64,000 nt of DNA, taken from NCBI GenBank assembly GCA_040220875.1, contig JAVJVX010000005.1:521665-585664 (forward strand), in the 5' to 3' direction. Origin of the DNA: Alphaproteobacteria bacterium (lineage in GTDB: Bacteria; Pseudomonadota; Alphaproteobacteria; JAVJVX01). The notes under the pieces are model-generated. The model did not search any database. It was given only the letters and a program-made list of their open reading frames with translations, and was not told the origin of the DNA. A program made the position numbers and the translations under genes. Positions 695-28,719 of the stretch are shown here, in pieces (position 1 is the first letter of the stretch; each line of letters opens with the position of its first letter).

Positions 695-1885
695 CTAGTT
701 GGGATTTCCGGGCTGGATACCCCGGTTGGCCCGGGTGCAGAGCTTGCGCCAGGCCGTCGTGACGACATCCGGGCCGAATAGCCGCTCGCGGCGCCAACCA
801 TTCTCTTCGCCGTAAAAGCGCTCCATGGCCTCACGGGCGAAGACGTCCTCGTTGGTGAACTTGCCCGGCACGACATCGCGCCAGACATAGCGGACCTCGT
901 CGAAAAAGGCCTTCTTCTCCTGCTCGGTCCGGGTCTTGCGGCCCCAGGCGATAAAATAGCGGTGAGTCTTCTCCGTCACCGGCACATACCATTCGAAATG
1001 CACCGTATCGGGCGTGGGGAAGGGATCGACCCTGAGGCCGCACGGCATCCAGATCGTCACTTCGGGGATCATTCCTTCGAGGATACCCGGCTCGTCGGGC
1101 ATATAGCGGGCCGCGATGGTCACGCCCGGCTCCACCTCGGCCTCCCAGATGGGCCGGCCCGCGCCGCGGGTGAGCTTGACGCCCTTGGGTCCATCCCCCT
1201 CATAGACTTCGAGGCCATGCCCGTCGCCGAGGTCGGCGTCGCCGAGCACCGTCGGCACATGAAACCCCCGGACCAGGCCGGAATTCCGATGCATATAGGT
1301 ATGGGCAGGATCGAACCCGTTTTCCGCGCCAAGCCGCCAGTTGGCCTCGACGATGTTCGACCAGCCCTCGGGACAAAGCGTGAGATCGGGATCGAGAAAT
1401 CCCGGCTGCAGATCGTCGGCCAGCGGCGGCGGGTCGATATCGCCGATGAAGACGAAGACCATGCCTTTCTGCTCCTCGACCGGGTAGGTCTTGAGCGCGG
1501 CCTTGCCGATGAGCGGGCTCGTCGGATCGGTGATGATATGGGTGAGGTTGCCGTCGCGGATATCGTAGGTGAAGCCATGATACCAGCACGTCACCGAATG
1601 GGCGGCGTAGCACTCGAGGCGTTTCGATAATGGCACGCCCTTGTGCAGACATTGATCCTTGACGCAATACACCTTGCCGTCCAGGCGCCGGAAAAGCAGG
1701 TCCTCGCCCAGCATCGTGACGCTCCTGGCATGGCTGACCGGCTGGCCTTCGCGGTCGCTGACATCGGCTTCCGCCAACTCGTGGCTGAAAAACGCCGGAT
1801 ACCAGTGATTGCGAAAACCGAGAGCTGCGTCGATATAGGGCTCCCACGGCGTCGCCGCCCGGGCACGCTCCTTCTGCTCACTCAT
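695..1885 (-). CDS. Rieske [2Fe-2S] non-heme iron oxygenase, alpha-only type (about 396 aa)
   Basis: Rieske motif CVKDQCLHKG…CWYHGF near the N-terminus. The C-terminal catalytic domain has a His/Asp-rich mononuclear Fe region. RBS GGAGACAGGA lies upstream of the ATG at 1885. No beta-subunit gene is adjacent. Confidence 0.85.
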   Translation of the reverse strand: MSEQKERARAATPWEPYIDAALGFRNHWYPAFFSHELAEADVSDREGQPVSHARSVTMLGEDLLFRRLDGKVYCVKDQCLHKGVPLSKRLECYAAHSVTCWYHGFTYDIRDGNLTHIITDPTSPLIGKAALKTYPVEEQKGMVFVFIGDIDPPPLADDLQPGFLDPDLTLCPEGWSNIVEANWRLGAENGFDPAHTYMHRNSGLVRGFHVPTVLGDADLGDGHGLEVYEGDGPKGVKLTRGAGRPIWEAEVEPGVTIAARYMPDEPGILEGMIPEVTIWMPCGLRVDPFPTPDTVHFEWYVPVTEKTHRYFIAWGRKTRTEQEKKAFFDEVRYVWRDVVPGKFTNEDVFAREAMERFYGEENGWRRERLFGPDVVTTAWRKLCTRANRGIQPGNPN

Positions 1886-2087
1886 ATTGTCCTGTCTCCG
1901 CCCCTAAACCCACGTGCGAGAATCGCTCTTTGGCGCTTGCCCGGTATCCAGCCTAGACCGGGAAGCCGGCCCCTGTCAAGCCGGAGCCTAGGGGATATCA
2001 CGGAGGCATACGGCATCATTTGCCCCGGCCGTGAGTAGTTTCTAATGTTCGAGAGAATTCTGAGTGGAACGAGGGGAGGAGTACAAC

Positions 2088-2810
2088 ATGGCGACTTACG
2101 TCTTGGTGCATGGCGCTTTCATGGGAGCCTGGTTCTGGGAGGATATGGCACGCCGGCTGGAAGCGGCCGGCCATCGGGCGATCGCACCGGATTTGCCGAG
2201 CCAGGGCAGGGACACGCAGCCGGTCGCCGGGATCGGGCTCGATGATTATGTGAACCGCATCAGCGCGATAATTGATGACGAGGATGAGCCCGTCATCCTG
2301 GTCGGCCACAGCCTGGGCGGGCTGACCATCTCGCAAACAGCGGAGCGTCGCCCCGACAGGATCAGGAAACTGGTCTATGTCGCGGCCTTCCTGCTGCCCG
2401 ATGGCAGCAGCCCGCGAAAATTCTACGAAGATCTGGGCGTACCGTCGCCGGTGATGGGCGCCTCTATCATGCATGAGGACGGGACGGTCGATCTCAAGCC
2501 CGAGGCAATGGAGGAGATCATCTTCAATACCTCACCCGCCTGGCTGATCGAAGCGGCCATGGACCATTTGAAACCCACGTCGCGCAAGCCCATGGCCACG
2601 CCGCTCGAATTGAGTGACGGGAATTTCGGCCGCGTGCCGCGCGTATATATCGAGGCACTTCAGGACAAATCCATCCCGATCAAATATCAGCGCATGATGG
2701 TGGAGGCGCTGCCTTGCGCGACGGTGATCACCATGGACACCGACCATTCGCCGATGTTTTCGGCCCCCGACGAACTGGAACGCCACCTGCTGGACGTGGC
2801 GAAGGGCTAA
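2088..2810 (+). CDS. Alpha/beta-fold hydrolase (esterase/methylesterase-like)
   Basis: N-terminal VLVHGAF followed by the nucleophile elbow GHSLGG. RBS GGGAGGAG lies 6 nt before the ATG at 2088; the tracked ORF starts at an upstream GTG at 2064. Confidence 0.8.
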   Translation: MATYVLVHGAFMGAWFWEDMARRLEAAGHRAIAPDLPSQGRDTQPVAGIGLDDYVNRISAIIDDEDEPVILVGHSLGGLTISQTAERRPDRIRKLVYVAAFLLPDGSSPRKFYEDLGVPSPVMGASIMHEDGTVDLKPEAMEEIIFNTSPAWLIEAAMDHLKPTSRKPMATPLELSDGNFGRVPRVYIEALQDKSIPIKYQRMMVEALPCATVITMDTDHSPMFSAPDELERHLLDVAKG

Positions 2811-2832
2811 GGAGGGCCAGCGCCGACACGCC

Positions 2833-3891
2833 TCAGGTCACGATGGCGACATGCTCGAAACCGCTTGAAACCTGTGTCGCCGCATCGAGTGCCTCGGCCG
2901 CCTGGTCGAGCGGAAACACCTTGGCCGATGTCGCCGAAAGGTCGAGGGCGCCCGAGCCGATCAGGCGCAGCAACTCTTCCGTCATGTCGTAAGGGAACCA
3001 TTCGGATCCCCGAATCGTCAGCTTGCGCCCGATCATCATCGTCGCATAATCCACCGGGATGGTGGCGTCCAGCCCGCCGATCAGCACGGCGTGGCCTTCG
3101 ATGCCGAGCGCATCGATGGCCGCCCGCGTCGGCCGCGCATCCTGGGTGAACCCCGTCGCATCCACGAAGAGATTCGCCTGCCCGGCGACGGACAGGATAT
3201 CGGCAGCAGCAACCCCCTTGGCCGTGGAGACCGCCCTGACCCGACCGGGCGCCAGGCCTTCCAGCCGCTCGAGTGCAGCCGGCTTGCGGCCCATGGCGAT
3301 GATGGTCGAGGCCCCCATGGCGAGGAGCAGCAGGACCGCTGATACCCCCAGCGCCCCCGTTGCCCCGTTGACAATGGCAACGTGACCCGGCCGGAATGCG
3401 CCGCGCTTGATGGCGTAATAGGCCGTCCCGATATAGCCGAAACGGCTCAGCACGGCGGGATCGACCTTCTCGGCTGCGCCAAGGGGGGTGACGCATTCCG
3501 CCGGCAGGAGAAACTTCTCTGCAAAGCACCCGTTCGGCCATTCCTTCAGGACCGCTTCGCCGCCCGGCATCGGCGCCGCCAGCCCGACATAGCCGCCAAG
3601 CCCGGAAACGCCCTTCAGCGTCACCCAGTCATCGCAGTAGACCTTCTGGCCTGCTTCCAGCCCGTGCACGTCCTCGGCCACCGCCTCGACGGTGCCGATA
3701 GCGTCCGTACCCGGAATATAGGGCGGCGGCGGAAGCGGAAACGGCACCCGGCCTTCGGTAAACTCCTTCATCGGTGCCGGCACGAAGCCGGCATCCACCC
3801 GCACGATGACACATCCCGGCCGGAGCACCGGGTCGTCAACTTCCTCGACCCTGGCGGGGGTGGCGAAATCGCGAACGAGAAGCGCCTTCAT
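2833..3891 (-). CDS. Zn-dependent medium-chain dehydrogenase/reductase (MDR, quinone-oxidoreductase-like)
   Basis: GroES-like N-terminal domain and a Rossmann segment IVNGATGALGVSAVLL. Its start overlaps the upstream Rieske gene stop by 4 nt, so it is probably in the same operon. Confidence 0.85.
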   Translation of the reverse strand: MKALLVRDFATPARVEEVDDPVLRPGCVIVRVDAGFVPAPMKEFTEGRVPFPLPPPPYIPGTDAIGTVEAVAEDVHGLEAGQKVYCDDWVTLKGVSGLGGYVGLAAPMPGGEAVLKEWPNGCFAEKFLLPAECVTPLGAAEKVDPAVLSRFGYIGTAYYAIKRGAFRPGHVAIVNGATGALGVSAVLLLLAMGASTIIAMGRKPAALERLEGLAPGRVRAVSTAKGVAAADILSVAGQANLFVDATGFTQDARPTRAAIDALGIEGHAVLIGGLDATIPVDYATMMIGRKLTIRGSEWFPYDMTEELLRLIGSGALDLSATSAKVFPLDQAAEALDAATQVSSGFEHVAIVT

Positions 3892-5048
3892 GAGATTTTC
3901 CCCCCACCCTCGAGTTCGGCCGCATAGGCCCGGAAGCGTGTCACCAGCCAGCGGTTGAAATGAATGAGCGGCGTCTCCAGATATCCGTACCGGCCGCCAT
4001 AAACGAAGCGCGATCGCCGGCCCTCCTGAACCGCGCGGTTGGCCGTGATGTCCTGATCGTTGATCTCGTTGAAATCCTCGAGGACCTTTTCGAGAGTCTC
4101 CTCGAAATCGGGCCGCTTGACGGTGCTTTCGGGATAGAGGAAGCCAACTCGCAGCGTGATGTTCTCGGGTCCGGCCGGACGGATAATGAAATAGAAGGCG
4201 CCGTCGGGCAGCGTGGTGAAAAGCATGTTGGGCGGTACAACGCTGAACATGACCCGCCAGCGGTCTTCCTCCGTCAAGCTCTCGAGTACGGGAAACATGC
4301 TCTTGCCCGTCCGGGTGAAATTGGCGTCCCTGTGGGTAAAGGCCGTGGGCGAGAAGATGGCTCCGTCATCCTCCGGATCCCAGTCGGGAAAAGTCGCGTT
4401 CCGGTTCGGCGCCATGTCATGATAACCCCTGTGAGCGACGGCGGTGTGGTAGGGCTCGACGCCGTTCTCCTGCATCCATTTCCAGTTCCACGGATTATCC
4501 GGGATATCGATGGGCGGCAGGGCGACGAGGTCGGCCAGGCGATGATTCTTCACTTCCGCCGTCAGCCGCTTCAGCCGGGACGCGAGCGGGCGGGCCGTGC
4601 CGCTCAGATTGACAAAGATAAAGCCGTTCCAGATCTCACTGCGCAGAGTTGGCAGGCAGTGATCCTCCCGCAGCTCGTCGAGCGAGGCTGTCCGTTCCAT
4701 TTGCGGGGCCGACAACAATTCTCCGTCGAGGCCGTAGACCCAGCCATGATAAGGGCAGGTGAACTGCCGGGCGTTACCGCCCGCCTCGCCCAGGATATGC
4801 CCGCGATGGCGGCAGACCGCGGGCATCACCCGGATTTCACCGTCGTTGCCGTGCACGACGAGGAACGGGTCATCGTTGATTTCGATCGTGAAATAATCTC
4901 CCGGCCTGGGCACCGTGCCGTGATGGCCGAGACAGATCCAGTCCCGATCCCAGACGGCACGTTTTTCGAATTCGAACCATTCGGCCGAAGTGTAGCAGGC
5001 CGCCGGTAACGGCCGCGCCGTCTCGAAATCCTCGGTCGCGCTATCCAT
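3888..5048 (-). CDS. Rieske non-heme iron oxygenase, alpha-only type (about 386 aa)
   Basis: Rieske motif CRHRGHILG…CPYHGW. The start was reassigned to the internal ATG at 5046-5048 (MDSATEDF…). The listed ORF extends to 5873 only because the frame is open in GC-rich DNA. Confidence 0.8.
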   Translation of the reverse strand: MDSATEDFETARPLPAACYTSAEWFEFEKRAVWDRDWICLGHHGTVPRPGDYFTIEINDDPFLVVHGNDGEIRVMPAVCRHRGHILGEAGGNARQFTCPYHGWVYGLDGELLSAPQMERTASLDELREDHCLPTLRSEIWNGFIFVNLSGTARPLASRLKRLTAEVKNHRLADLVALPPIDIPDNPWNWKWMQENGVEPYHTAVAHRGYHDMAPNRNATFPDWDPEDDGAIFSPTAFTHRDANFTRTGKSMFPVLESLTEEDRWRVMFSVVPPNMLFTTLPDGAFYFIIRPAGPENITLRVGFLYPESTVKRPDFEETLEKVLEDFNEINDQDITANRAVQEGRRSRFVYGGRYGYLETPLIHFNRWLVTRFRAYAAELEGGGKIS

Positions 5049-5330
5049 GCCGGCGAGAAGCTCGCGCAGCACCGGCGAAAGACGAAAATCATCGTCAGGT
5101 GCAGAGTTGAAGCCCAAGGCCTTTCCCCCTTTGTTCAATAGTGCCGATTTGACCGGCGGGTCCGCTTCACGCCGCGCGGCAGGTCTGCCGGAATTGGTCG
5201 TTTTTCCGGATCGCGGGATGTTAGGATGCATGGTAGCGACGGCCCCGGCGGCGTGCAACGCGAATGGCAGGGGCGGTCCGGGATCTGAAATCGCAGCAAC
5301 AGAATTACGGATTTTTGGCAGGGAGGAATC

Positions 5331-5744
5331 ATGGCTCGCAAAACAGCGGTCCACAACGACCGCGCGCCGGATATGCGCGGGTTCTTCAATTGGGGATTGA
5401 AGATTTCCGACATGGACGAATTGTTCATCGCCACGGGACGGCCCGCCTGGGCGGCGGACGGTTCGGTCGTGAGCCCCGGCGATGCAGTGCGCCAGACGCA
5501 ATATATCCTTGAGGACATGGAGAAGTTTCTTGCCGAAGCCGGCTATGCGAAAGATGACCTGATCCGGATTGAATATACGTTCACCAAAGAGGTGGGCGAG
5601 GATCAGTACGAGGCAGTCTTCCGTGTTTTTGCCGACTGGCTCAAGGACGTAGCGGTGAAACCCGCCGCCAGCACACTCCGGATCGTTGACGGCCTCGCCC
5701 TGGCCGGCCTCGTCGTCGAATACGAATTCTGGACCGCGAAATAA
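5331..5744 (+). CDS. RidA/YjgF-like (Rid family) protein
   Basis: 137 aa with an RidA-like C-terminal region (…TLRIVDGLALAGLVVEYEF). RBS GGGAGGAA lies immediately upstream of the ATG. It is divergent from the Rieske gene. Confidence 0.7.
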   Translation: MARKTAVHNDRAPDMRGFFNWGLKISDMDELFIATGRPAWAADGSVVSPGDAVRQTQYILEDMEKFLAEAGYAKDDLIRIEYTFTKEVGEDQYEAVFRVFADWLKDVAVKPAASTLRIVDGLALAGLVVEYEFWTAK

Positions 5745-6865: not shown

Positions 6866-7333
6866 ATGAGCCTGAGCACAGACGAGGCACGCATCCAGCG
6901 TTGCTACGAATTGGCGCTGCGCGCGGTGCAGCACGGCAGCGAGCCCTTCGGCGCGCTGCTGGTCAAGGACGACACCATCATCATGGAGGCGGAAAACGCG
7001 ACCCGGAAGGGCGAAGACCCGACGCGCCACGCCGAGACGGAGCTGCTTGACCGGGCGCTCCGCGAACTCGGCATCGATGGTGTCCGCGGCGCCACAATCT
7101 ATACCAGCACGGAGCCGTGCCTCATGTGCTGCGGCAAAATGTATTGGGCGGGTCTCGCGCGACTCGTGTTCGGAGTCCGTATTTCAGAGTTGCGCAAGCT
7201 CATGGATTTCGACTACCGGCTGACCGCCGACGGACTTTTTGAGAGCATGAGCCCGCGAATTCCCGTCTCCGGTCCAGTGCTGGAGGCCGATGGCCTGGCG
7301 CAGCACCGCACCTTCTGGACCGCGCGCGACTAA
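6866..7333 (+). CDS. CMP/dCMP-type nucleoside/nucleotide deaminase (guanine/tRNA-adenosine deaminase-like)
   Basis: Zinc-binding motifs HAE and PCLMC. The start is the internal ATG at 6866 with RBS GGGAGA. The long upstream extension in ORF 6221..7333 is a GC artefact overlapping the OMP gene. Confidence 0.8.
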   Translation: MSLSTDEARIQRCYELALRAVQHGSEPFGALLVKDDTIIMEAENATRKGEDPTRHAETELLDRALRELGIDGVRGATIYTSTEPCLMCCGKMYWAGLARLVFGVRISELRKLMDFDYRLTADGLFESMSPRIPVSGPVLEADGLAQHRTFWTARD

Positions 7334-8049
7334 ACGGCGCCTTCCGCCACGTTGCGCGTTCCAAACCGGTCGAGCGCCGCGGTTGCTTCCTCGCGGGTCA
7401 TCACGTCGCCGAATTGCTGAATGATGTTCTCGAGCGCGGCCTGATGCTCGCGCTCCGAGAGCGCAGCACAGCAATCACGCAACATCACCACATCAAAATC
7501 CATCATCATCGCGTCCCGCGCCGTCGTCTCGCAGCAGATATTTGTCTTGGTTCCGGCGATAAAAAGGCTTCTGAACCCTCGGCTCCGGAGCATGCGCTCC
7601 AATGGCGAAGATCCGGGGATGAGCGCGCTGTAGCGGTTCTTGATTATGAATACGTCGCCTTCGCCAGGCTCCAGCTCGGGCCAGAGCTTCTGGCCCGGCG
7701 CCTCGGGGCGCAGGCTTTGGATGGTGCGCGTGCGCACCTCGTCGGAGACGAAGCGGTTGAAGAACCCGTCCCAGTCGCTGCCCCCCTCGCCGACCGGCTG
7801 GTTGGCGTGAACCACCCAGATCACCGTGCCGCCCCGCTCACGCAATGCAGCCGCGAACTCGTTGATATTCCCGACAATTCCCCGCGAGGCCGGAACCTCG
7901 GCCGGGCTCCCCTCGGCGACGAAAGTGGGCTGCATGTCGATCACCACGAGTGCGGCGCGCGAAGCGTCGATGGCATCAAACAAATGGTAGCGGCCCCGGC
8001 GCGCGATAACACGGTCGGCGACCTCCTTGCTGACATCCGAGTCATGCAT
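7330..8049 (-). CDS. Isochorismatase-family cysteine hydrolase
   Basis: Catalytic region NICCETTARDA and a conserved Asp/Lys context. Its stop overlaps the convergent deaminase gene stop by 4 nt. Confidence 0.85.
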   Translation of the reverse strand: MHDSDVSKEVADRVIARRGRYHLFDAIDASRAALVVIDMQPTFVAEGSPAEVPASRGIVGNINEFAAALRERGGTVIWVVHANQPVGEGGSDWDGFFNRFVSDEVRTRTIQSLRPEAPGQKLWPELEPGEGDVFIIKNRYSALIPGSSPLERMLRSRGFRSLFIAGTKTNICCETTARDAMMMDFDVVMLRDCCAALSEREHQAALENIIQQFGDVMTREEATAALDRFGTRNVAEGAV

Positions 8050-8064
8050 GCCGCTGCTCCTTCA

Positions 8065-8349
8065 TCAGACCTTGATTCGATCCTCAAGAAAGGGATCGCC
8101 CTGCGTCGCCGTCTCCGCATCGAGCAGCGTGCCACAGGACGGACAGAAGAACCGGCGCACCACCACATCATCGGCGGTGGTATAGATCCCATCCACCTGA
8201 TTGAGCGGCGCCTCGTCGAGACGGGCCTTCTCCTTCCATGACTGGCTGACGGGCGCGATCGCCGTTTTGCAGGCGGCGCAGGCTGTCATCCAGACCTGGC
8301 CCTTTTCCTGCGTGGCCACGAGGCTGGCCGAAAGTCGCTTTGTGTTCAT
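8065..8349 (-). CDS. Small Zn-ribbon protein, putative third subunit of a hydantoinase/acetone-carboxylase-type complex
   Basis: 94 aa with two Cys pairs (CAACK … CPSCG). Its start overlaps the stop of the hydantoinase-B gene by 4 nt, which suggests translational coupling. Confidence 0.5.
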   Translation of the reverse strand: MNTKRLSASLVATQEKGQVWMTACAACKTAIAPVSQSWKEKARLDEAPLNQVDGIYTTADDVVVRRFFCPSCGTLLDAETATQGDPFLEDRIKV

Positions 8350-10178
8350 TCCGCAGCCTCCGCCCGAAGCCGATCATCACGCATCTGCTGCCGCCGCTCG
8401 GCCGTCGCCGCCTGATCGACCCGGCCGGAAACCGGATCGGCGACCACGCCATAGAGCCTGAGGGCCGAATCGGCCGAGACCGCACCAAGCCGCAGATCCG
8501 TCTCGACCGCGGCCACCTCGCGCGCCAGAGGATCGCCAAACCCGCCGCCGCCATTCCAGCGCACATAGAGCCCGTCATCCGCGTCGAGCCCATAGAGGCC
8601 CCAGGAGATCCGCTCCGACTGGCCAACCATCTCATCGAGCGAGGCCGGCAGAGGCCCGCGATTGGATGGCCCCGACAGCACGTTCTTGACCTTGACGTAG
8701 TTCGACGGCCCGCCCGGCAGGCCACCCGCCAGCCCCTCGCTCATGGGACAGGTAATGCCCTTGCCCGAGATGACGAAACCGATCCCGCCCGCGGGCGAGC
8801 CATGGGGCACGATCGCGTATTCGGCGCCCATGCCGCCGCGATACTCACCGGCCCCGCCCGAATCGGGCATCATGCGCCGGAACAGGTAGAGGACGGGAAA
8901 TTCCGATTCCATCTGTTCCACATTGGCCATGCGCGAAATCGGGTTGGGCACTTCACCGCCCACATCGATCCCATCGGCGAAACTGCGGGCCCCGCCAGCG
9001 CCGCCGAAGGTCTCGGTCATGATCCCGATGGCGTCCTCGTTTCGCTGGTTCTTGCCGAAAAGGAACAGCGCCACGTGGCTGCCGTGCCAGACCGCGGTCG
9101 CTTCGTCCGCCAGGGTTTCACTGGCCGACAGCATCTTCGAGATGCAGGTCACGCTGGCATTGTTTACCGACTGGATGGCGCCCACCGTCGCAACGGAAAC
9201 CGGCGCCGGTCGTGTGCAGTTCACGATCGTGCCCTCGGGCGCGATCATGCGGATAGGCCGGATGACGCCCTCGTTCCAGGTGATGTCGTAGCAAAGCAAG
9301 GGGAAGATCGGCGCAAACATGCCCCCCCAGGCGGCCCAGTAGGCGCAGTTGACGCCATAGGCGGTCTGCGGACTGGAGCCGGAAAAATCGAAGGTCAACT
9401 CGTCGCCCGTCTTGGTCATGGTGAGCTCGACCCGGAAGCGCTCGCCCTTGAGTTCAAGAAACTGGCGCGACTGCCACTGGCCGTCCGGGAGTTCGCGGAG
9501 CCGGGCACGCAGACGCTCTTCCGACTGGCTGACAAGCCGTCTGCAGGCGTCGTCCACCTGCGCCACGCCGTATTTATCGACCAGCTCGGTCATGCGCTCA
9601 CGCGCGACGTTGTTGCAGGCGATCATGGACCGGATATCGAGCGCCACCATTTCGGACGACCGGACCATGTTCAGCATCGTGTTCAACACGTCATGGCGTA
9701 TCCGCCCCCGGTCCACCAGCTTGATCCCGGGCGAGGAAAATCCCTCGGTAAAAACATCGGTGGAATCCGGGCTGAACCCGCCGGGATTGAGTGCTCCGAT
9801 ATCATAGACGTGGACGAAGCAGGCACTCCATGCGACGAGCTCGCCCTCGTAGTGGATCGGTGCGACGAGATAGACATCCGATGTATGCAGCGCTGCCGTA
9901 TAGGGATCGTTGAGCAGGAACACATCGCCTTCGAAGATATCGCCCTCGAAGTTCCGGATAATGTGCTTGCAGGCCTGGCTGGCACTGGTCAGATGGTGCA
10001 GGAAACCCACGCCACCCATCAGCAGTTCACCCTTCGCCGAGTAAAGGGACACCATCAGGTCATGTCCCTCGTTGGTGATGGCGCTGCCCGAGACATGCTT
10101 GAGCGTGATGACCGCCTCGTCCACGACGCGAAACAGTCGATGGCGAATGATTTCGAAGGTAATGGGATCGAAGGACAT
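8346..10178 (-). CDS. Hydantoinase B / oxoprolinase family protein (HyuB-like)
   Basis: N-terminal DPITFEIIRHRL… is a typical HyuB start. 610 aa. Located directly after the hydantoinase-A gene. Confidence 0.85.
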   Translation of the reverse strand: MSFDPITFEIIRHRLFRVVDEAVITLKHVSGSAITNEGHDLMVSLYSAKGELLMGGVGFLHHLTSASQACKHIIRNFEGDIFEGDVFLLNDPYTAALHTSDVYLVAPIHYEGELVAWSACFVHVYDIGALNPGGFSPDSTDVFTEGFSSPGIKLVDRGRIRHDVLNTMLNMVRSSEMVALDIRSMIACNNVARERMTELVDKYGVAQVDDACRRLVSQSEERLRARLRELPDGQWQSRQFLELKGERFRVELTMTKTGDELTFDFSGSSPQTAYGVNCAYWAAWGGMFAPIFPLLCYDITWNEGVIRPIRMIAPEGTIVNCTRPAPVSVATVGAIQSVNNASVTCISKMLSASETLADEATAVWHGSHVALFLFGKNQRNEDAIGIMTETFGGAGGARSFADGIDVGGEVPNPISRMANVEQMESEFPVLYLFRRMMPDSGGAGEYRGGMGAEYAIVPHGSPAGGIGFVISGKGITCPMSEGLAGGLPGGPSNYVKVKNVLSGPSNRGPLPASLDEMVGQSERISWGLYGLDADDGLYVRWNGGGGFGDPLAREVAAVETDLRLGAVSADSALRLYGVVADPVSGRVDQAATAERRQQMRDDRLRAEAAE

Positions 10179-10181
10179 AGC

Positions 10182-12281: not shown

Positions 12282-12395
12282 CCGGTATCCTTTTCTGCGC
12301 TATTCCCTGCCCACGCCCGGTGGCGCCCAGCCGGACGATAATATATTTAATTTCAATTGAAATCCAACGATAAAACGCCGCGGCGCGGCCGCCAT

Positions 12396-21099: not shown

Positions 21100-22212
21100 C
21101 TAGGCGAGGGCGGCCACATCCAGAAGGCCGCCCGTCACGATATTGTTGGGCGACTTGAATGTCGGGATGACGTATTTCCCGATCAGTTCGATCGAACGCA
21201 TGAGCTCCTCGTGTTTCATGATCCCGTCCAGGCGCAGGATGACTTCGTCATAACCGAGCGCCTGAAGGCGGGTAATCTGCTCGATGAAGTAATCGGGTGT
21301 CCCCACCATCAGTCCCGGTGTCGTGCTCTGCACGTAATCAATATCGTTGATGTGCGACTGGATCTTCTCGATCTGGTCCATGTACTTGTAATCGGGTGAC
21401 CGCTTGGCGAGATTTTTGTAAATTTCGATGACTGCGTGGAAAAATTCGATCGTGGTCGGACCGCCCTGCTCCATCGCGTCCTTCTTTGTCTCGGCACAGT
21501 AGGCCGGAAGAACCAGAAATGAGAGAGAGTTGGTCACGAACTTCCCGACCTGTTTTGTCGGCGCGGCGATCTCCTTCTGATAGATCCGGGCGCATTCCTC
21601 GGCGTAGTCCCAGCCGAAATAACTGTCCCACGCCATCGCGCCGATCCCCTTCTCGCCGGCGATCTTGTGCATTTCAAGACTGGTCGTCGCGACATAGATA
21701 GGCGGGTGCGGGTTTTGCAGCGGCTTGGGCGTGAGGTAGACCGGCGTTTTCATATCCCAGTATTTTCCGTGGAACTCTACCTGCTCCTCCGTCATGGCCT
21801 GGACGATGAAATCCAGGGATTCATTCCATTGGGCGCGGGTCTCGGTCGGATCGACGCCCATCGCGTCCATGGTGATGATCGAGTTGGATCGGCCGGTCCC
21901 GAACTCGGCCCGGCCATCGGAGACGAGATCCAGAGTTGCAAGCTGCTCGGCGATCCGCAGCGGGTGATTGAACTTGATCAGGAGGCGGACCATGTGGCGC
22001 AGCTTGATACGGCTCGTGTGGGCGGCGACAGTGCCGTAAAAAACTTCCGTCGCCCCCATCCCGAAATCGCGCAGGAAGTGCTGCTCGGACGAACCCCAGA
22101 AATCGAAGCCCATTTCTTCCGCCAGCACGATCTCGTCGATCATCTCCTTGTAGCGGCGATGATGGGTCGTGCCGTGAGGCACCGTGGCCTCGTGAATAAG
22201 TCCGAACCGCAT
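21100..22212 (-). CDS. LLM-class flavin-dependent (luciferase-like) monooxygenase
   Basis: TIM-barrel LLM features (MRFGLIHE…, …LRLDG…). Start reassigned to the ATG at 22212 with RBS GAGGAG. Confidence 0.85.
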   Translation of the reverse strand: MRFGLIHEATVPHGTTHHRRYKEMIDEIVLAEEMGFDFWGSSEQHFLRDFGMGATEVFYGTVAAHTSRIKLRHMVRLLIKFNHPLRIAEQLATLDLVSDGRAEFGTGRSNSIITMDAMGVDPTETRAQWNESLDFIVQAMTEEQVEFHGKYWDMKTPVYLTPKPLQNPHPPIYVATTSLEMHKIAGEKGIGAMAWDSYFGWDYAEECARIYQKEIAAPTKQVGKFVTNSLSFLVLPAYCAETKKDAMEQGGPTTIEFFHAVIEIYKNLAKRSPDYKYMDQIEKIQSHINDIDYVQSTTPGLMVGTPDYFIEQITRLQALGYDEVILRLDGIMKHEELMRSIELIGKYVIPTFKSPNNIVTGGLLDVAALA

Positions 22213-22418
22213 AATGTTCTCTCCTCGAACGGTAAGATTGTGCGCTATTCTCGCCCCCCGGCCGGCGCCCCCACACCCCTCTATTCGGGTAGGACGCACA
22301 GCACACAGGCCCTGTCGTCTGCCGGGCCGCCCGGCATACGCTACCCGGAACGAGGGGTGACGACCCCGCCCGGCACGTCCCATGCTGGGCGTAACGCAAT
22401 ATCGCAAAGGGGGGCTGA

Positions 22419-22814
22419 ATGGCTGAACCGCAATCCAAGGACTGTTCGGACGGGCTGGTCCGGGCGATGCTGGCGGGCGATCTGGACGCCTTCGTGGCGC
22501 AGTATACCGACGACGCCGTGCTTTACGGACCCGCCAATGTCCAGAGTGTGGGCAAGGAGGCCATCCGCGCCGAGATGGGAGAATTTTTCAAGGTCATCCA
22601 GGCCGATTCCTTCGACTGGGACGATAACGCGGCCGTCTCGGGTGACGTGGCATATCACTGGGGCACCTGGACGTTGAAGGGCAAGAACAAGGTGACGGGC
22701 GATGACCTGGAGCTCAAGGCCAGGACGCTCGACGTACGCCGTCGGCAGGCGGATGGCACCTGGCTCATCGCGGCCGACCACGCCTCATGGTTTCCGCAGG
22801 CACCGGACGCCTAG
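22419..22814 (+). CDS. SnoaL-like/NTF2-fold (DUF4440-type) small protein
   Basis: 131 aa. Typical DUF4440 segments (…FVAQYTDDAVLYGP… …TWLIAADHAS). Confidence 0.5.
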   Translation: MAEPQSKDCSDGLVRAMLAGDLDAFVAQYTDDAVLYGPANVQSVGKEAIRAEMGEFFKVIQADSFDWDDNAAVSGDVAYHWGTWTLKGKNKVTGDDLELKARTLDVRRRQADGTWLIAADHASWFPQAPDA

Positions 22815-23039: not shown

Positions 23040-25847
23040 TCATATCAGGCCGGCGTTTTCCGCCATTCGAACCGCAGCAAGACGACGGCGGACGCCCAGC
23101 TTCTGATAAATGTGGCGTATGTGCCAACGAACCGTCGTAATTCGGATCTTGAGGTGCTGGGCAATTTCACTGTCGGAAAGCCCGGCGCCCATCGCGCGCA
23201 GAACCTCAGCCTCCCGCGGCGTCAACAGGTTCTCGCTGACCGAAGCGACCATGGTGGCAGGCCCCGCCTTGCTCTGCATGAATTTATTGCAGGCCGCGAA
23301 AAACCTGTCGAGGTCGCGCGTGCCCACGAGGCGCGTGGCCTGGTCACGCAAGAGCTGCAGAGTTGGCCAGAGCCATGACAATTCATCATAAACTGTTCGC
23401 CCGAAACCATGCGAATTCGCGAGCCGCGCCGTGGCGCCCAGAACCTCGGCGGCCTTCGCCGTGGTGCCTAACCGGCCATGGAGGCCCACACGCAACAAAT
23501 TTATTTTCAGGAGCGGCCTAAAGGCTCCACCCGCGTCGAGCACCCGGGAGATCGCCTCTAGTGCGGCCGAGGCTTCCTGTAATAATCCTTCGTCTTCGCG
23601 ACCGGCGAGGAGGGCGGCGCGGGCAAATTTTTCGTGCAGCCCCAGGCTTTCCAATGTCAACCCGCGCTTTGACGCCAAACGGAAAGGCGGCGGCGCGCTT
23701 TTCAGGGTGTCGGAGACGATTCCGGCAACGAACGGGAGAGTTTCGATATCACGACCGTCCCGAGCGATCCGAACCACCTGCCCGACGGAGGGAGGGAGCG
23801 CGGCTTGTCGCAAGATCTCGTTCTCGATGGCCACAGAAATTCTTGGATACCCGTATCGTTGGGCGAAATCCTGCGCTTCCTGCGCGACCGTTCTGAAAGT
23901 CCCGGTTGGTCCCCGTTCAGCCATTTTGAGGCGCAGCACATGCGCCACACCAAAAAGATCCGGCAGGGCAAAACTCTGCAGGCAGGGCAGTATTTCTCCG
24001 ATCTGCGCGTTCAGGCCTTCCAGCTCGTTCAATTCGTAACGAATCTCCATTTGCCCGACGATAGCCATTGACTCGAGTGTACTGCGGGTGTCGCCCAAGG
24101 ACTGGGCAAGCTCGACCGCCAGCTGGAAGGAGCGAGACGCCGATTGCCACTTGCCGAGATCACCATGGATGATGCCGGAAATGCAGCAATGATAGATCTT
24201 GCCCAATTGCGCATCGGTCCTGGCATAGAGGCTTTCTGCGCGTTCCAGGATGGGGGTGGCGCTATTGAGATCGCCGGCGTGGCGTGTGGCAAGAGCCAGG
24301 CAAGACCACGTCGTCGCCTCGTCATACAGATTTGCTCCCGAAGACTTGTATGTGTCGAGCCACTGGGTGGCCTGCTCGCGAACGCGGGGCAGATCGTCCT
24401 GAAACAGGGAGAGCATCATCTCACGATGCTTGATCCGGCCTTCCAGGGATAGAAATTTCGCCGCAGAAATCCGCTTTGTCTTTTGGAGGGTTTTGAGACG
24501 TCCGCGTATCCGTTTTAAGACCTGCTCGGCTTCGTCAAAAGATAACTTGCCCTCAAGCGCCCAGACCTGATTCAACAGGATATCAGGAAACCGGTCCACG
24601 ACCGCCATCGGCAGTCCTTCCACGGAATCAAGCAGTTCCTTGATCTTGCCCCGAGAAAAAAGATCCTGTGAGATTGAGCTCACAATGCCGGCGGCCTCGT
24701 CCGTCAATCCCGCAGCAAGGGCGTGTTCAAGCAAATTTTCCTGCGACACGTCCCCGCGACTGAGGAACCTAAAGGCATATTTGTGCCATTGCCTTTTTTT
24801 GTCGGGGGCCTCTTCCTGGAAGATACGGCGAAGGCTCTCGCACAATGTCCGATTTAACTGGAGTTTGCCGGGAACGGATGCCGATGACGGCTCCAGAAGA
24901 AATTCCCGGTCCCGCGCATCCTGGAATGCGTCAAGCAAGGCCGGGGTCCTCGACAAAGAACGGACGTCGTCAATGCCAAACTGTCCAAGTGCGGCCAGTT
25001 GAAACAGGGAATGGCGGGCGGCGCGCGATCGAACCGCCAGAAATTTGGCTCGGACATAATCGTCGAGGATTTCCTCGATCTGACGTTTTGTCGGCCTCGA
25101 TCCGGCCCGGAATTTCTGGTGATGATGCGAGACATGAGCAATGGGCCCGATCCAGCCATCGCTGGCATCGATAAGATCGGAAATGGGCATAGGTGGATCT
25201 TCCGTGCCCGTCACAAGCGAATAATACGTTTGGAGCGATTGCGCGGTATAACGGAGCTTGTCGTGCGTAAAGACTTCCGGAAAAACCGCGCCGTTCGGGA
25301 CCTCTTCCAGAAGAGGGGCTGGCAGCCGCCGGCCGAGCACGACCAGCTTCAATCCTGACTCAGGCGAGGCACCAAGCTCCCCAAGGAGTCTGGCCGCAGC
25401 GCCATTGTCCAATTGCTCGACGTCATCGATTACCAGCGTCGCCGAGATATCCCGCGCTGAAAATTCGTCCAGTAGAAGTGCAGGAAAAAGCATGCGGAGT
25501 GCCGGATTGTTTTGCCGGCGCAGGGTGGCAATACCACTGCCGACAACGAGCCCCGCCCGCGAGAGAGCTGCGACAATGTCACCGAACAACCGGCCCGGCT
25601 CGCTATGGGCGGCCCCCAGACGAAGCCAGGCGACCGTTTGACCGCGCTTGATCGCCCCATCGGCCCAAATGGCGAGAAGGGTCGATTTTCCCCAACCAGG
25701 CGGAGCGACGAGATAGCTTGGGGTTTCGCCGAGCGAGTCGAGGACCGGAGCGGCAGCCGCCGGCGGTGGCAGCGCAAAGGGTGGCAGGGCCACCGGACGG
25801 AAACGGATCTCTCCGCTTAACTGGGCAGAGGCGAGGGGACTGTCCAT
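23040..25847 (-). CDS. Large ATP-binding LuxR-family regulator (MalT/LAL-like), copy 2
   Basis: P-loop GWGKSTL. 935 aa. C-terminal LuxR HTH (EAEVLRAMGAGLSDSEIAQHLKIRITTVRWHIRHIYQKL). Confidence 0.85.
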   Translation of the reverse strand: MDSPLASAQLSGEIRFRPVALPPFALPPPAAAAPVLDSLGETPSYLVAPPGWGKSTLLAIWADGAIKRGQTVAWLRLGAAHSEPGRLFGDIVAALSRAGLVVGSGIATLRRQNNPALRMLFPALLLDEFSARDISATLVIDDVEQLDNGAAARLLGELGASPESGLKLVVLGRRLPAPLLEEVPNGAVFPEVFTHDKLRYTAQSLQTYYSLVTGTEDPPMPISDLIDASDGWIGPIAHVSHHHQKFRAGSRPTKRQIEEILDDYVRAKFLAVRSRAARHSLFQLAALGQFGIDDVRSLSRTPALLDAFQDARDREFLLEPSSASVPGKLQLNRTLCESLRRIFQEEAPDKKRQWHKYAFRFLSRGDVSQENLLEHALAAGLTDEAAGIVSSISQDLFSRGKIKELLDSVEGLPMAVVDRFPDILLNQVWALEGKLSFDEAEQVLKRIRGRLKTLQKTKRISAAKFLSLEGRIKHREMMLSLFQDDLPRVREQATQWLDTYKSSGANLYDEATTWSCLALATRHAGDLNSATPILERAESLYARTDAQLGKIYHCCISGIIHGDLGKWQSASRSFQLAVELAQSLGDTRSTLESMAIVGQMEIRYELNELEGLNAQIGEILPCLQSFALPDLFGVAHVLRLKMAERGPTGTFRTVAQEAQDFAQRYGYPRISVAIENEILRQAALPPSVGQVVRIARDGRDIETLPFVAGIVSDTLKSAPPPFRLASKRGLTLESLGLHEKFARAALLAGREDEGLLQEASAALEAISRVLDAGGAFRPLLKINLLRVGLHGRLGTTAKAAEVLGATARLANSHGFGRTVYDELSWLWPTLQLLRDQATRLVGTRDLDRFFAACNKFMQSKAGPATMVASVSENLLTPREAEVLRAMGAGLSDSEIAQHLKIRITTVRWHIRHIYQKLGVRRRLAAVRMAENAGLI

Positions 25848-26003
25848 GGCGCGTCCGGTCTTCGGTCATTTGGAAACGAAGGTCCACCACAGAGCCTTGT
25901 GACGCATGATCCCCCAGTCGTGGCAGGTTTGTCCATAAACCGATTAGCTGGGGTCGAGGAAAAATGGGGGCGCCTCTCAGACGCCCCCGGAGAAAGCAGG
26001 ATC

Positions 26004-27275
26004 CTATCGCCCGCCATCCAGGACGCGCAGGCTGACCGAATCCTCCTCGACCGTCGGATCGTTGAACTTGGGGTCGAGGATATACATGGTCGCATGCATG
26101 CGCTGGAGATCTATTGTATGCCCCTGGCCGCTCCGCACGATCTGACGCTCGGGCGTCGCGTTATTTGGCGATCCCCACACCTTGAACAGCTGAACCATCT
26201 GCTTCCAGCGTTCGCCTTTCCGATCGAAGAATTCACCCAGGAAGAGGCTGTATTCCTCGGCATCCATATAGATGATTTTCTTGGAGTAAGGGTGATACTC
26301 CGGCGGGGTCGCCTCGATGATGTAAACTTCCCGCGGCTCCCAGAACGCGATCGGGTTCCAGTAAGGTGCCTCCCCCAGATTTACCGCCGGGAACCGTTCA
26401 TCGGCGACGCCGAGGCCCAGGACGCCTTTCAGGAAGGGGCCGGGATTATTGGCTGAGACCAGCATTTTCTGCCGGCCCAGCACCTTGTAGGACGGGTACC
26501 AGGCTGGATGGGCGTTGAAGATATCGAAATCGTCTTGCAACTGGTCTGTCCCGCCGATGGGGTCCATCCAGGCGCCGCCCGAAAGCCGGCGAATCCGGCG
26601 CACGGTCCGGACATAGGCCCAGGTGTCGTTCAGCTTGGGTTCGACATAGCGGATCGCGAAGGTCCCGAGCCCCTCGATGTCATGGGGCTGAAGGGCAAAC
26701 AGGAGCTGTTTGTTGAAAATTGTGCCGTTGCCCGCAGTGTGGCCGTTCCCTACCAGACGCCCGACCATCTTGTAGCTCAACTGGGTCCAGATCTGCTCGC
26801 GATCGAGCCCCTGGGTGCCGTCGATGAGGACCATGGCGAACTCGGGATTGTAGAAGGAATCCCCTTCCTGGCGACCATAGGTGTAATTCCAGATCAGCTT
26901 CAGTCCGGCTTTGGGATCGGACTCGATTTCAACCTCCGGAAAAGGCGCCCCAGCAACCCAGTTCATCGGGGTCTTGGTGGCCGGATCGAGTTGGATCTTT
27001 CCGGCATTGGCCGCTGTCAGCCTGTCCATGAGAGGGTCGCGTGGCCAAGGTGTCGGGTCCATGATGCGAAGCTTAAGATTGTAGTTGCTGACCAGGTGCC
27101 CGACCCCGTCCGCCAGCATGTCGGACACCGGTGTGCCGTCGACGGTCTTGTCCAGACTTTGCTGAAGGTTGTCCTTGGAAATTATGGTGTTTTCGGGCAG
27201 TGCCTCGGCACTGGCCCCGGTCAGCGTGACCGCGCTGAGCATCAGCGTGGTCGCAATGAACCCCATTCTCTTCAT
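26004..27275 (-). CDS. DUF1329 family periplasmic protein, paralog 2
   Basis: Signal peptide, then GAPFPEVEIESDPKAGLKLIWNYT, VRRIRRLSGGAWMDPIGGTD and PREVYIIEATPPEYHPYSKK. RBS GGGGAG lies upstream of the ATG at 27275. Confidence 0.7.
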   Translation of the reverse strand: MKRMGFIATTLMLSAVTLTGASAEALPENTIISKDNLQQSLDKTVDGTPVSDMLADGVGHLVSNYNLKLRIMDPTPWPRDPLMDRLTAANAGKIQLDPATKTPMNWVAGAPFPEVEIESDPKAGLKLIWNYTYGRQEGDSFYNPEFAMVLIDGTQGLDREQIWTQLSYKMVGRLVGNGHTAGNGTIFNKQLLFALQPHDIEGLGTFAIRYVEPKLNDTWAYVRTVRRIRRLSGGAWMDPIGGTDQLQDDFDIFNAHPAWYPSYKVLGRQKMLVSANNPGPFLKGVLGLGVADERFPAVNLGEAPYWNPIAFWEPREVYIIEATPPEYHPYSKKIIYMDAEEYSLFLGEFFDRKGERWKQMVQLFKVWGSPNNATPERQIVRSGQGHTIDLQRMHATMYILDPKFNDPTVEEDSVSLRVLDGGR

Positions 27276-27370
27276 CGGCTTTTCTCCCCAGGATTTGGGC
27301 GGCCCCCATTCAGGCAGGCCGCACCGGTCGCATTCGAATTATCTTTTTCTGGTTTAGGGGGCGGTTGGGC

Positions 27371-28621
27371 TCAGTATTTTATTTCCGAGGCTTTCTTCCC
27401 TCGCACCATCTGGTCCGCCGCTTCGTACAGGTGACGGCAGGTGATTTCCTGATCGGAAAATTGAAGGAACGGCACGGCACCGCTTTTCAACCCTTGCTGC
27501 GTGCTTTCCTCCGTACTGAGGTCTTCGAGAAGCCCGTCCCTGAACTGCACGACCAAAACCTCTTGGGCCAGGCGCTCACCAATGGTCTGAGGCTTGGGCG
27601 AATACATCTTGCAGACCCAGTGAGTTTCATCCACGGCGACCGGCCAAAACTCGTAGGTGAAATACCAGTCGGGGGCCATGTCGATGAAATTGATGGGAAA
27701 GATGACGTTGACCTCGAAGGCGTGATTGGCATCGCCATCCGGGTTTATGCCCGGTGGCGGGCCTTCAGGCAGGCCCCGCGCCTCGCGGTTACGGACCATC
27801 CCGCCGCCGGAATACTTGTAGGCGAGTTGCTCGATCTCCGTGGGCTGGTAATTGGGATTTCGCGGGATCGTCGCAGAGTGGTGGGGGCCGTAAATCCGGA
27901 CAGAAGAGATTCGGGCGGCTTCGCGCGGTGCCTCCACGAAGGCCGGCCCCAGCCAGTTCCGATGCACCCAGCCGACATGATATAATTCATGGAAGGCGTC
28001 GATGAAGACCTTCCAGTTACATTTGACTTGTGCCGACCATTTGCCGATCTGCACCATCTTGTCGAATGGATAGCCGTCGAGCTGTTCCCCGAGTCCGCCC
28101 AGATAGTCTTTCAGGTTCTGCTCCGGCTCCGGCTCCGCGTTGACAAAGATGAACCCGTTCCAAGTTTCTGTTGCGATGGGTGCCAACGCGAGCGTCGCCT
28201 CGTCCAAGTCGAAGAATCTGTCCCTGTCCGTTACGTGGACGAGTTTGCCCATGTTGTCGTAAACCCAGCCGTGGAAGCCGCAGGAAAAGAACTTCGTATT
28301 GCCGTGCTGCTCGTAGCAAACCTGATTGCCCCGGTGCCGGCACGAATTGTGGAATGCGCGAACAATGCCGTCTTTACCGCGCACAACGATAAGATTGGTG
28401 TTCAGGATCGAGATTGGCTTCTGGAAATAGTCACCCGGTTCCGGAATTTCCTGCTCCCGGCCAACCATCATCCAGGTTTTCTTGAATATGTTTTCGCGCT
28501 CCTTCTCGAAATATTCAGGAGATGTATAGGCCTCCGCCGGGATCGGTCCCGTTCCCATGCTGGGGAATTCCGGAGCGAAAAATTTCTCGTAATCGTTCGA
28601 CGTCTTGTCTGTTACTGCCAT
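27371..28621 (-). CDS. Rieske non-heme iron oxygenase, alpha-only type (about 416 aa)
   Basis: Rieske motif CRHRGNQVC…CGFHGW. The ATG at 28621 is preferred over the GTG at 28633 used by the ORF track. Confidence 0.85.
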   Translation of the reverse strand: MAVTDKTSNDYEKFFAPEFPSMGTGPIPAEAYTSPEYFEKERENIFKKTWMMVGREQEIPEPGDYFQKPISILNTNLIVVRGKDGIVRAFHNSCRHRGNQVCYEQHGNTKFFSCGFHGWVYDNMGKLVHVTDRDRFFDLDEATLALAPIATETWNGFIFVNAEPEPEQNLKDYLGGLGEQLDGYPFDKMVQIGKWSAQVKCNWKVFIDAFHELYHVGWVHRNWLGPAFVEAPREAARISSVRIYGPHHSATIPRNPNYQPTEIEQLAYKYSGGGMVRNREARGLPEGPPPGINPDGDANHAFEVNVIFPINFIDMAPDWYFTYEFWPVAVDETHWVCKMYSPKPQTIGERLAQEVLVVQFRDGLLEDLSTEESTQQGLKSGAVPFLQFSDQEITCRHLYEAADQMVRGKKASEIKY

Positions 28622-28719
28622 TGGGGTCCCCACGAATCATCTGCTGTGCCGTTTATCGGAAATTGGCCTTAGAACTCAGGTGATAATCGGGAACAGGGCC
28701 AGGTCTTCGACCGTTTCGG

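Follow-up and report, generated by a model that had tools for sequence, protein, structure and literature searches.

A 2025 review of Rieske oxygenases lists only four kinds of assembly, α3, α3β3, α3α′3 and α3α3 (PMC12445004). Both CarAa of carbazole 1,9a-dioxygenase (PDB 1WW9) and the 2-oxoquinoline 8-monooxygenase OxoO (PDB 1Z01) are α3 enzymes (PMC12445004). A study of the group V enzyme CntA showed that E205 is the bridging residue for inter-subunit electron transfer and that clade Va, which acts on quaternary ammonium compounds, is recognised by a Tyr or Phe in position 203 (PMC7948474). Here, three genes for Rieske alpha subunits, given the working names R1, R2 and R3, are compared with these systems. 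They lie in a stretch of 64,000 nucleotides (nt), referred to as the window, of contig JAVJVX010000005.1 (assembly GCA_040220875.1, positions 521,665 to 585,664), a marine-type alphaproteobacterial metagenome-assembled genome (MAG). All three genes are real, keep their metal ligands and fall into three different Rieske subfamilies. R1 and R2 belong to kinds of oxygenase that are already known, to which they add new members, and R3 forms a two-gene module with a small, unannotated gene. The genes in question, with lengths in amino acids (aa), are as follows.

27371–28621, minus strand: R3, CntA/Stc2-like Rieske alpha subunit, 416 aa (Pfam Rieske and Ring_hydroxyl_A)
28720–29052, minus strand: small helical partner of R3, 110 aa, unannotated family (conserved gene pairing)
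3888–5117, minus strand: R2, Ring_hydroxyl_A-type Rieske alpha subunit, probably 409 aa (Pfam, public gene call)
695–1885, minus strand: R1, CarAa/OxoO-type homotrimeric Rieske ring hydroxylase, 396 aa (Pfam and PDB match)

As the G+C content of the window is about 62%, genes were chosen by length and third-position G+C. Every main open reading frame (ORF) was scanned with Pfam. Up to about 57 kb, all stop-to-stop ORFs of at least 45 aa that had at least 120 nt within an intergenic gap were concatenated and scanned in the same way, and between 57 and 63 kb the larger gap ORFs were scanned one by one. A six-frame search of the whole window found the C-x-H...C-x2-H cluster motif in exactly three ORFs, R1, R2 and R3, each of which combines a Rieske and a catalytic domain well over the Pfam thresholds. 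The positions given for these genes in a preliminary description of the stretch are thus borne out by Pfam and motif scans. Of the size range named there, 386–420 aa, the lower value is probably not the length of R2. This length results from the ATG at 5048, whereas public gene calls start at 5117 and yield 409 aa; homologues are typically about 405–425 aa long, and R2 is probably a 409-aa protein starting at 5117. The exact R1 and R3 proteins are also found on other public contigs, including JAVJPR010000009.1 (GCA_040217455.1) and a 546-kb ENA contig.

R3 had been described as a stand-alone gene, which does not hold, as a conserved small gene lies directly upstream on the same strand at a distance of 98 nt. 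Its 110-aa product has no Pfam, NCBIfam or PDB match. Two R3 homologues likewise have an unannotated ORF of 111–127 aa directly upstream, one locus containing two such pairs, and the small proteins of these two loci and of R3 are homologous (32–41% identity). A profile search returned 233 family members at 90% clustering, all annotated as "hypothetical" and none with a Pfam domain, and an exhaustive search gave 1,141 representatives when clustered at 50%, of which 651 reach E ≤ 1e-10. The family occurs mainly in uncultured Gammaproteobacteria, including Immundisolibacter and Rugosibacter MAGs, but also in Alphaproteobacteria, in Myxococcota, in MAGs with the labels Pirellulaceae (Planctomycetota), Spirochaetales and Deltaproteobacteria, and in Sphingobium boeckii DSM 25079 (L037), the one carrier found that is in culture. 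A literature search on Immundisolibacter and ring-hydroxylating dioxygenases yielded nothing that bears on such a partner, and a literature search for Rieske accessory or gamma subunits was too unspecific to be informative.

Gene pairing was counted on one-genome-per-species contigs, which provided 38 copies of the small gene in 33 loci. In 33 of the 38 copies the next gene downstream of the small gene, in the same orientation, is an R3-type Rieske gene, with an estimated gap of at most 150 nt and often with overlapping reading frames. Three of the remaining five copies are at contig ends and two are exceptions. Conversely, an adjoining small gene was present in five of six loci reached via R3 or its homologues. 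The two proteins also diverge in a correlated manner: in a mirror-tree comparison of 35 pairs, the distances among small proteins and among Rieske proteins correlate with r = 0.90, a value reached by none of 2,000 permutations. Within the two classes of pairs r is 0.96 and 0.84, and where one locus holds two pairs each small protein keeps its own Rieske class. A second small–Rieske pair is encoded in the same genome, also adjoining a DUF1329 gene (L045; such L-numbers are labels of public loci fetched for comparison).

The arrangement of these pairs varies among the loci. Tandem small–Rieske–small–Rieske arrays are found in L007/L022, L028, L030 and L128, those of L007/L022 and L030 with one pair per class, and an extra Rieske gene (small–Rieske–Rieske) is present in L019, L036 and L039. 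Tandem pairs and extra Rieske genes suggest hetero-oligomers of the α3α′3 kind. The class with a Rieske protein of about 430 aa has a conserved operon of its own (L013, L017, L021, L022, L023, L030, L034, L035 and others), in which the small and Rieske genes are followed by genes for a 594-aa Vgb-lyase-like beta-propeller and, after it, a 186-aa LpqE/PCuAC-like protein; in three of these loci a MalT/LuxR regulator is found upstream.

The single-chain model of the small protein is confident and helical. The invariant and near-invariant columns of the family comprise Leu, Pro, Phe, Trp, Glu, Arg, Met, Tyr, Asp and Val, and neither Cys nor His is among them. The small protein can therefore not hold an iron–sulfur cluster, and together with the all-helical model this rules out that it is the missing ferredoxin. 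It is neither a ferredoxin nor an NTF2-type beta subunit.

The R3 protein itself resembles the group V oxygenases. Its AF2 model (pLDDT 93.1) was compared with known structures by Foldseek, and the top twelve matches are all CntA chains (TM 0.81–0.84, normalised to the target), followed by 3n0q, another CntA entry and Stc2; the alpha subunits of classical α3β3 enzymes rank lower (0.66–0.70). Identity to CntA in the structural alignment is about 20%. By phmmer alignment, F210, E212, H215, H220 and D367 of R3 correspond to Y203, E205, H208, H213 and D323 of CntA. C94, H96, C114, H117, E212, H215, H220 and D367 are invariant in the R3 family alignment; among its 120 members the bridging Glu is present in all and a Phe occupies the CntA-203 site in 113. 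Because of the CntA-like model and the aligned, invariant catalytic residues, R3 would be expected to work like a CntA-type α3 oxygenase. Electrons would pass from its Rieske cluster (C94, H96, C114, H117) across the subunit interface via Glu212 and end at the iron held by H215, H220 and D367.

Comparison with the described systems reveals further likenesses and differences. R2 and R3 share with CntA and Stc2 a bridging Glu rather than Asp, a length of about 400 aa and the lack of an NTF2-type beta subunit. At the position of CntA Tyr203, R3 has Phe210, whereas a Gly or Ala is found in R2 and its family. Unlike in the CntA and GbcA systems, no CntB/GbcB-type flavin plus [2Fe–2S] reductase adjoins R2 or R3, and a conserved helical partner gene as found for R3 has not been described for CntA, GbcA or Stc2. 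With the classical α3β3 enzymes (NDO, BphA, Sphingomonas CHY-1 PhnI), R2 and R3 share the two-domain alpha fold and similar phmmer E-values over the N-terminal half, and R3 additionally a small second gene that appears co-transcribed with the alpha gene. Still, both differ from these enzymes in lacking a Ring_hydroxyl_B gene and, in phmmer alignments, in having Glu where CHY-1 and B1 dioxygenases carry Asp (D205 of NDO). The partner of R3 also differs from a beta subunit in being all-helical instead of forming an NTF2-like cone, and in being encoded upstream of the alpha gene. In line with the preliminary description, all three proteins belong in or next to alpha-only classes, with CarAa and OxoO as relatives of R1, CntA, 3n0q and Stc2 as matches to the R3 model, and CntA as the best PDB match of R2. 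The suggested GbcA type is not supported for any of them; R1–R3 score 22–127 bits against the GbcA equivalog model (R2 117, R3 127), the cut-off of which is 670 bits.

Canonical partners are absent from the window. In the main and gap ORFs, Pfam identified no Ring_hydroxyl_B (PF00866), Fer2, Fer4, Rieske ferredoxin or FAD_binding_6/NAD_binding_1 domain, and when all 64 kb were scanned for motifs in six frames, no credible frame contained a plant-type or CDGSH cluster motif. The previously stated lack of a beta subunit, ferredoxin or reductase is thereby confirmed at the level of domains and motifs. With no electron-transfer gene within the 64 kb, the donor of each oxygenase must presumably be remote, and each would have to be supplied with electrons by a reductase or ferredoxin whose gene lies outside the window. 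Similar observations were made outside this genome. Motif scans of 346 genes around 35 small–Rieske loci gave only two small Rieske-type ferredoxin candidates and no candidate for an FNR-type reductase, and neither a ferredoxin nor a reductase was among the recurrent neighbour clusters identified for relatives of R1. As donor genes are not conserved neighbours in any of the R1, R2 and R3 families, a donor that is encoded elsewhere or shared is usual for these families and not a peculiarity of the window. The earlier characterisation of all three as alpha-only with the donor elsewhere accordingly fits R1 and R2, subject to genes outside the window, but is incomplete for R3.

Two other proteins were considered as partners and rejected. 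The SnoaL_2/DUF4440 protein at 22419–22814, the only NTF2-like protein of the window, has no Ring_hydroxyl_B match and is encoded on the opposite strand 4.5 kb from R3. The FadH/OYE-like flavoprotein at 37663–39891 is not supported as a donor, since it is found 9 kb away behind unrelated transport genes and neighbours none of the three Rieske families elsewhere; phosphatase-like, sulfur-transport and zinc-transporter genes as well as two function-unassigned ORFs separate it from R3. It scores 602 bits against "mycofactocin system FadH/OYE oxidoreductase 2", under the cut-off of 793, and adjoins the third DUF1329 gene of the window with no Rieske gene beside it. The neighbours listed in the preliminary description (MDR dehydrogenase, RidA protein, hydantoinase A/B, luciferase-like monooxygenase and FadH-like flavoprotein) are all present in the window, albeit the flavoprotein lies 9 kb beyond R3 and not within the interval given there.

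The surroundings of the small–R3 pair contain the following features.

26004–27275, minus strand: DUF1329 (LolA-like) protein, last gene of a putative small–R3–DUF1329 operon (Pfam DUF1329, 174.5 bits)
25966–25988, minus strand: terminator-like hairpin after the DUF1329 gene (10-bp stem with 8 G–C pairs, T-rich tail)
29394–30257, plus strand: alpha/beta hydrolase similar to meta-cleavage-product hydrolases, divergent from the small–R3 operon (Pfam Abhydrolase_1)
23040–25847, minus strand: large MalT/LuxR-type regulator (Pfam TPR_MalT, GerE), with a second copy at 18258–21026
21100–22407, minus strand: luciferase-like (LLM) monooxygenase (Pfam Bac_luciferase, 166.8 bits)

The small gene, R3 and the DUF1329 gene probably form one transcription unit. 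The hairpin follows the DUF1329 stop at 26004 after 16 nt, and no terminator-like site was found between the small gene, R3 and the DUF1329 gene; promoter scans gave results at or below shuffled expectation. Three gene clusters that recur around small–Rieske pairs elsewhere are all represented in the window. The MalT/LuxR regulator (about 910 aa) is found close upstream of the pair in L021, L027 and L035, the cluster of the hydrolase at 29394–30257 recurs beside the pair in three other loci, and that of the LLM monooxygenase (370 aa, 21100–22212 in the public gene call) in L029, L031 and L034. Among NCBIfam models the hydrolase matches HsaD (92 bits) and BphD (74 bits) best, both under their cut-offs. 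In Pseudomonas putida, DUF1329 and DUF1302 genes share one operon that is thought to be regulated by a LuxR-type protein, and mutants in this operon are impaired on fatty esters (bioRxiv 10.1101/2020.07.04.188060). Between 24000 and 30000, which covers the MalT/LuxR regulator, the DUF1329 gene, R3, the small gene and the hydrolase, G+C dips to 0.58–0.59 as compared to 0.63–0.67 in adjacent bins, and the R3 module may be a horizontally acquired island. In addition, the window holds three DUF1329 (LolA-like) genes (13141–14628, 26004–27275 and 36362–37657) and two MalT/LuxR regulators of about 920 aa, and further DUF1329 genes adjoin Rieske genes in the same genome (L045). Such repeated DUF1329–Rieske neighbourhoods suggest a repeated uptake-plus-oxygenase design.

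These neighbours leave a mixed picture of the substrate. Phe210 points, by alignment, to quaternary amines, whereas the hydrolase, the LLM monooxygenase, the DUF1329 gene and the meta-cleavage pathway genes found beside an R3 relative (L006) point to hydrophobic or aromatic compounds. Chemistry on N-methylated compounds, as previously proposed from the gene neighbourhood, is thus only one side of the evidence for R3; the HsaD/BphD-like hydrolase, LLM, MalT/LuxR and DUF1329 neighbours are indicative of hydrophobic or aromatic substrates at least as much.

On balance, we favour an explanation in which R1, R2 and R3 are functional oxygenases with remote donors and R3 operates with a helical accessory subunit; taken as a whole, we consider this rather probable. 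The 110-aa protein would most likely be a non-redox subunit that binds the R3 alpha trimer. Like a beta subunit, though with an unrelated fold, it would have a structural function or serve for the docking of a partner. An earlier example of an accessory subunit in a Rieske-type complex that is neither redox-active nor of the beta type is NdmE, a structural, glutathione-S-transferase-like component of the caffeine N7-demethylase NdmCDE. However, NdmE is unrelated in fold and size, and it supports an oxygenase without a Rieske domain of its own whereas R3 has one. That the small protein is a true subunit of the R3 oxygenase is, taken separately, a tentative assignment that falls somewhat short of probable. 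We regard the more far-reaching formulation as a possibility of similarly tentative standing: helical proteins of 110–130 aa would be an obligate, previously unrecognised type of Rieske subunit, forming α3γ3 assemblies, or α/α′ assemblies with two gamma types where pairs are in tandem. They would define a large, almost wholly uncultured clade and either replace the NTF2-like beta subunit or dock a shared donor.

Several points weigh against this explanation. The physical complex is inferred, the models covering single chains, and a mirror-tree correlation is also expected from the simple co-inheritance of adjacent genes. No small–Rieske fusion was seen in the best 150 of the 1,141 representatives. 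R3-type genes without a small gene are found in L130, as a paralogue in L003, and as the second Rieske gene of L019, L036 and L039, and the small protein may therefore not be obligatory. The substrate signals are mixed, with a CntA-like Phe210 on the one hand and the HsaD/BphD-like hydrolase and DUF1329 gene on the other, and the search for donors spans the 64-kb window, so that their remoteness is a deduction from that interval.

Some of these points would equally be expected if all three proteins were alpha-only homotrimers served by shared remote donors, the 110-aa protein being no part of the enzyme but a co-transcribed maturation chaperone, regulator or substrate-handling factor. The nearest solved relatives, CntA, Stc2, CarAa and OxoO, are indeed α3 (PMC12445004), and besides the unpaired R3-type genes and the lack of fusions, gene order varies, the small gene being downstream in L010 and L129. 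We nevertheless regard this alternative as unlikely. Pairing is near-universal over a wide phylogenetic span, the two genes being closely spaced or overlapping, and each class of small protein keeps to its class of Rieske protein also where a locus has two pairs. In addition, neither a DNA-binding domain nor any other recognisable one is found in the small protein.

A second alternative concerns the chemistry of R3, which together with its partner might belong to the quaternary-ammonium oxygenases of group Va, like CntA, choline monooxygenase or OxyBAC, and cleave or oxidise a trimethylammonium and possibly lipid-like substrate and not an aromatic or hydrocarbon. CntA is the best structural match, the bridging Glu is invariant, and the Phe at the CntA Tyr203 site is a residue that marks clade Va (PMC7948474); the connection of DUF1329 genes with the use of fatty esters in P. 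putida (bioRxiv 10.1101/2020.07.04.188060) also speaks for it. Conversely, the low identity to CntA, a GbcA score far from the cut-off, the lack of an adjacent CntB/GbcB-type reductase, and the HsaD/BphD-like hydrolase next door with the meta-cleavage genes beside the L006 relative weigh against this assignment, which we consider improbable.

For the other two oxygenases the alpha-only description is adequate within the window. R2 is part of a conserved module with a RidA-like protein and an MDR dehydrogenase. These two genes are listed here, followed by the hydantoinase neighbours outside the module.

2833–3891, minus strand: MDR (zinc-type) dehydrogenase (Pfam ADH_N, ADH_zinc_N), with a 4-nt overlap with the R2 stop
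5331–5744, plus strand: RidA-like protein, divergent from R2 (Pfam Ribonuc_L-PSP, 28.7 bits)
8346–12281: hydantoinase B and A

R2 scores 67 bits for Rieske and 111 bits for Ring_hydroxyl_A, and its best PDB sequence match is CntA (E = 4e-34), confined to the N-terminal half. Of 120 family members, 113 carry Glu as the bridging residue within the motif E-x-Y-H-x4-H. When the clade rule was tested at CntA position 203 (Tyr/Phe for Va, Asn for Vb), R2 was found to have Gly and its family mostly Ala, and thus neither signature. A relative of 78% identity from another sample (L046/L047) shows the same RidA/Rieske/MDR order including the Rieske–MDR overlap; at a further distance of about 0.6 kb a protein of 163 aa with a Rieske domain is encoded. 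R2 appears to be translationally coupled to the MDR dehydrogenase; it would most likely hydroxylate a substrate, possibly a nitrogen-containing one, the product of which the dehydrogenase would then oxidise.

Among five R2 relatives inspected, three (53–55% identical) are immediately followed, within about 70 nt, by a gene for an NTF2-like protein of 247–264 aa. It combines a SnoaL_4 domain, i.e. the fold class of beta subunits, with one or two C-terminal CDGSH [2Fe–2S] motifs.

L042, 8317–9060: NTF2-like plus CDGSH gene beside an R2 relative (SnoaL_4 and CDGSH)
L043, 8236–9030: the same
L044, 8254–8997: the same

In this protein a structural and an electron-transfer partner of Rieske oxygenases may be fused. 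The motif scan found no CDGSH motif or partner gene in the window, and no literature linking CDGSH proteins to Rieske oxygenases was found. The gene in the window is thus alpha-only, but its family is not uniformly so. Genes of nitrogen chemistry are found beside relatives of R2, namely hydantoinase A/B, RidA and NicX in L044, and amidase and urease in L043. The chemistry on N-methylated or heterocyclic compounds that had been proposed for the whole group is therefore plausible for R2. Further on in the window, the interval 6866–13070 encodes a CDA-type deaminase, an isochorismatase-family hydrolase (RutB/BiuH-like), hydantoinases B and A (CapB/CapA-like, below cut-offs), a MarR regulator and a 94-aa acetone-carboxylase-gamma-like protein. 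This cluster looks like an ATP-dependent pathway for the opening of a lactam or hydantoin, and we take it to resemble the creatinine/N-methylhydantoin/N-carbamoylsarcosine route.

R1 is assigned, by sequence, as an α3 ring hydroxylase of the CarAa/OxoO type. It scores 218 bits for PF11723 Aromatic_hydrox ("homotrimeric ring hydroxylase", cut-off 24.4) and 49.5 bits for Rieske (cut-off 20.3), and gives full-length PDB matches to CarAa (E = 2e-104) and OxoO (E = 1e-70). Over 362 aligned positions, R1 and CarAa are about 47.5% identical. The phmmer alignment pairs the R1 motifs CLHKGV, CWYH, NGFDPAHTYMH and NEDVFAREAM with CLHRGV, CWYH, NGFDPSHIYIH and NDDIWAREAM of CarAa, so that the cluster ligands C-x-H...C-x2-H and the iron ligands D-x2-H-x3-H...D are kept in register. 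R1 thus agrees with CarAa and OxoO in its PF11723 domain, ligand motifs, full-length alignment and lack of a beta subunit. It differs from the CarAa system in that no CarAc/CarAd-type ferredoxin or reductase is encoded in the window, and from the OxoO system in that no OxoR-like reductase is encoded with the oxygenase within the 64 kb. Adjacent to R1, the following gene is found.

2064–2810, plus strand: alpha/beta hydrolase, divergent from R1 (Pfam Abhydrolase_6/_1)

A metagenome scan gave 360 relatives of R1, and the best 80 loci were fetched and their neighbours clustered. The recurrent operon consists of genes for an M20-family peptidase or amidohydrolase, an alpha/beta hydrolase, the Rieske protein, LigA and LigB, often with an isochorismatase-family hydrolase and an ABC transporter. 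The hydrolase at 2064–2810 belongs to the same BLAST cluster as the one directly upstream of R1 relatives; the cluster is represented in 44 of the 74 loci with a called R1-type Rieske gene, directly upstream where the context is visible. Neither LigA nor LigB was found in the window, the hydrolase alone being kept from the operon of the family. We take this operon to match the logic of the car operon, with an angular dioxygenase, the LigAB-type extradiol dioxygenase CarBaBb and the hydrolase CarC, and the hydrolase at 2064–2810 to be CarC-like. Unlike in the car operon, no LigAB-type (CarBaBb-like) extradiol dioxygenase accompanies R1, and the hydrolase is divergent and not co-directional. R1 may work with this adjoining hydrolase. 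The family context is one of car-like angular dioxygenation and LigAB ring cleavage, which does not bear out the demethylase type considered for R1 in the preliminary description.

That the three genes are orphaned remnants of broken operons, non-functional or silent after partner loss, could be argued from the missing LigA and LigB, the missing NTF2–CDGSH partner of some R2 relatives and the G+C dip at the R3 module, but is highly improbable given intact reading frames with every metal ligand preserved, the recurrence of the exact proteins on many independent contigs, and the conservation of the R2/RidA/MDR and small/R3/DUF1329 modules themselves.

Additional observations concern the remainder of the genome region. 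Left of the window edge, the same genome contains the remainder of a formate/nitrite transporter gene and a second pair of a hydrolase and a CarAa-like Rieske gene. One contig variant (L003, as compared to L001/L002) carries an extra insert of about 6 kb in this part, which encodes an LLM monooxygenase, an R3-like Rieske protein (415 aa, no small partner), a glyoxalase, RpiR, HpcH and a 2-hydroxyacid dehydrogenase; the insert is strain-level variation. Within the window, an interval of lower G+C (42865–50404) encodes a methyltransferase, an FkbH-like protein, a MaoC dehydratase, an acyl carrier protein, a GDSL-like protein, an MBOAT acyltransferase and a transglutaminase-like protein, and looks like a locus for surface polymer or lipid modification. 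At 56629–57238 an 88-aa ADH_N fragment adjoins a small excisionase-like ORF (HTH_17), and downstream of these follows the gene for a heavy-metal P-type ATPase; the site may be a mobile-element scar.

In summary, to describe R1 and R2 as alpha-only oxygenases with a donor encoded elsewhere is nothing unusual, whereas for R3 this description is incomplete. Rieske oxygenases are widely used in bioremediation and biocatalysis, and their heterologous expression often fails without a needed component. The SnoaL_4–CDGSH protein beside R2 relatives suggests a second unrecognised type of Rieske partner. If the proposed role of the helical partner of R3 is true, it would add a new type of Rieske component, represented by more than 1,000 sequence clusters and present in no family database, and would explain why enzymes of this clade might show no activity if produced from the alpha gene without its partner.

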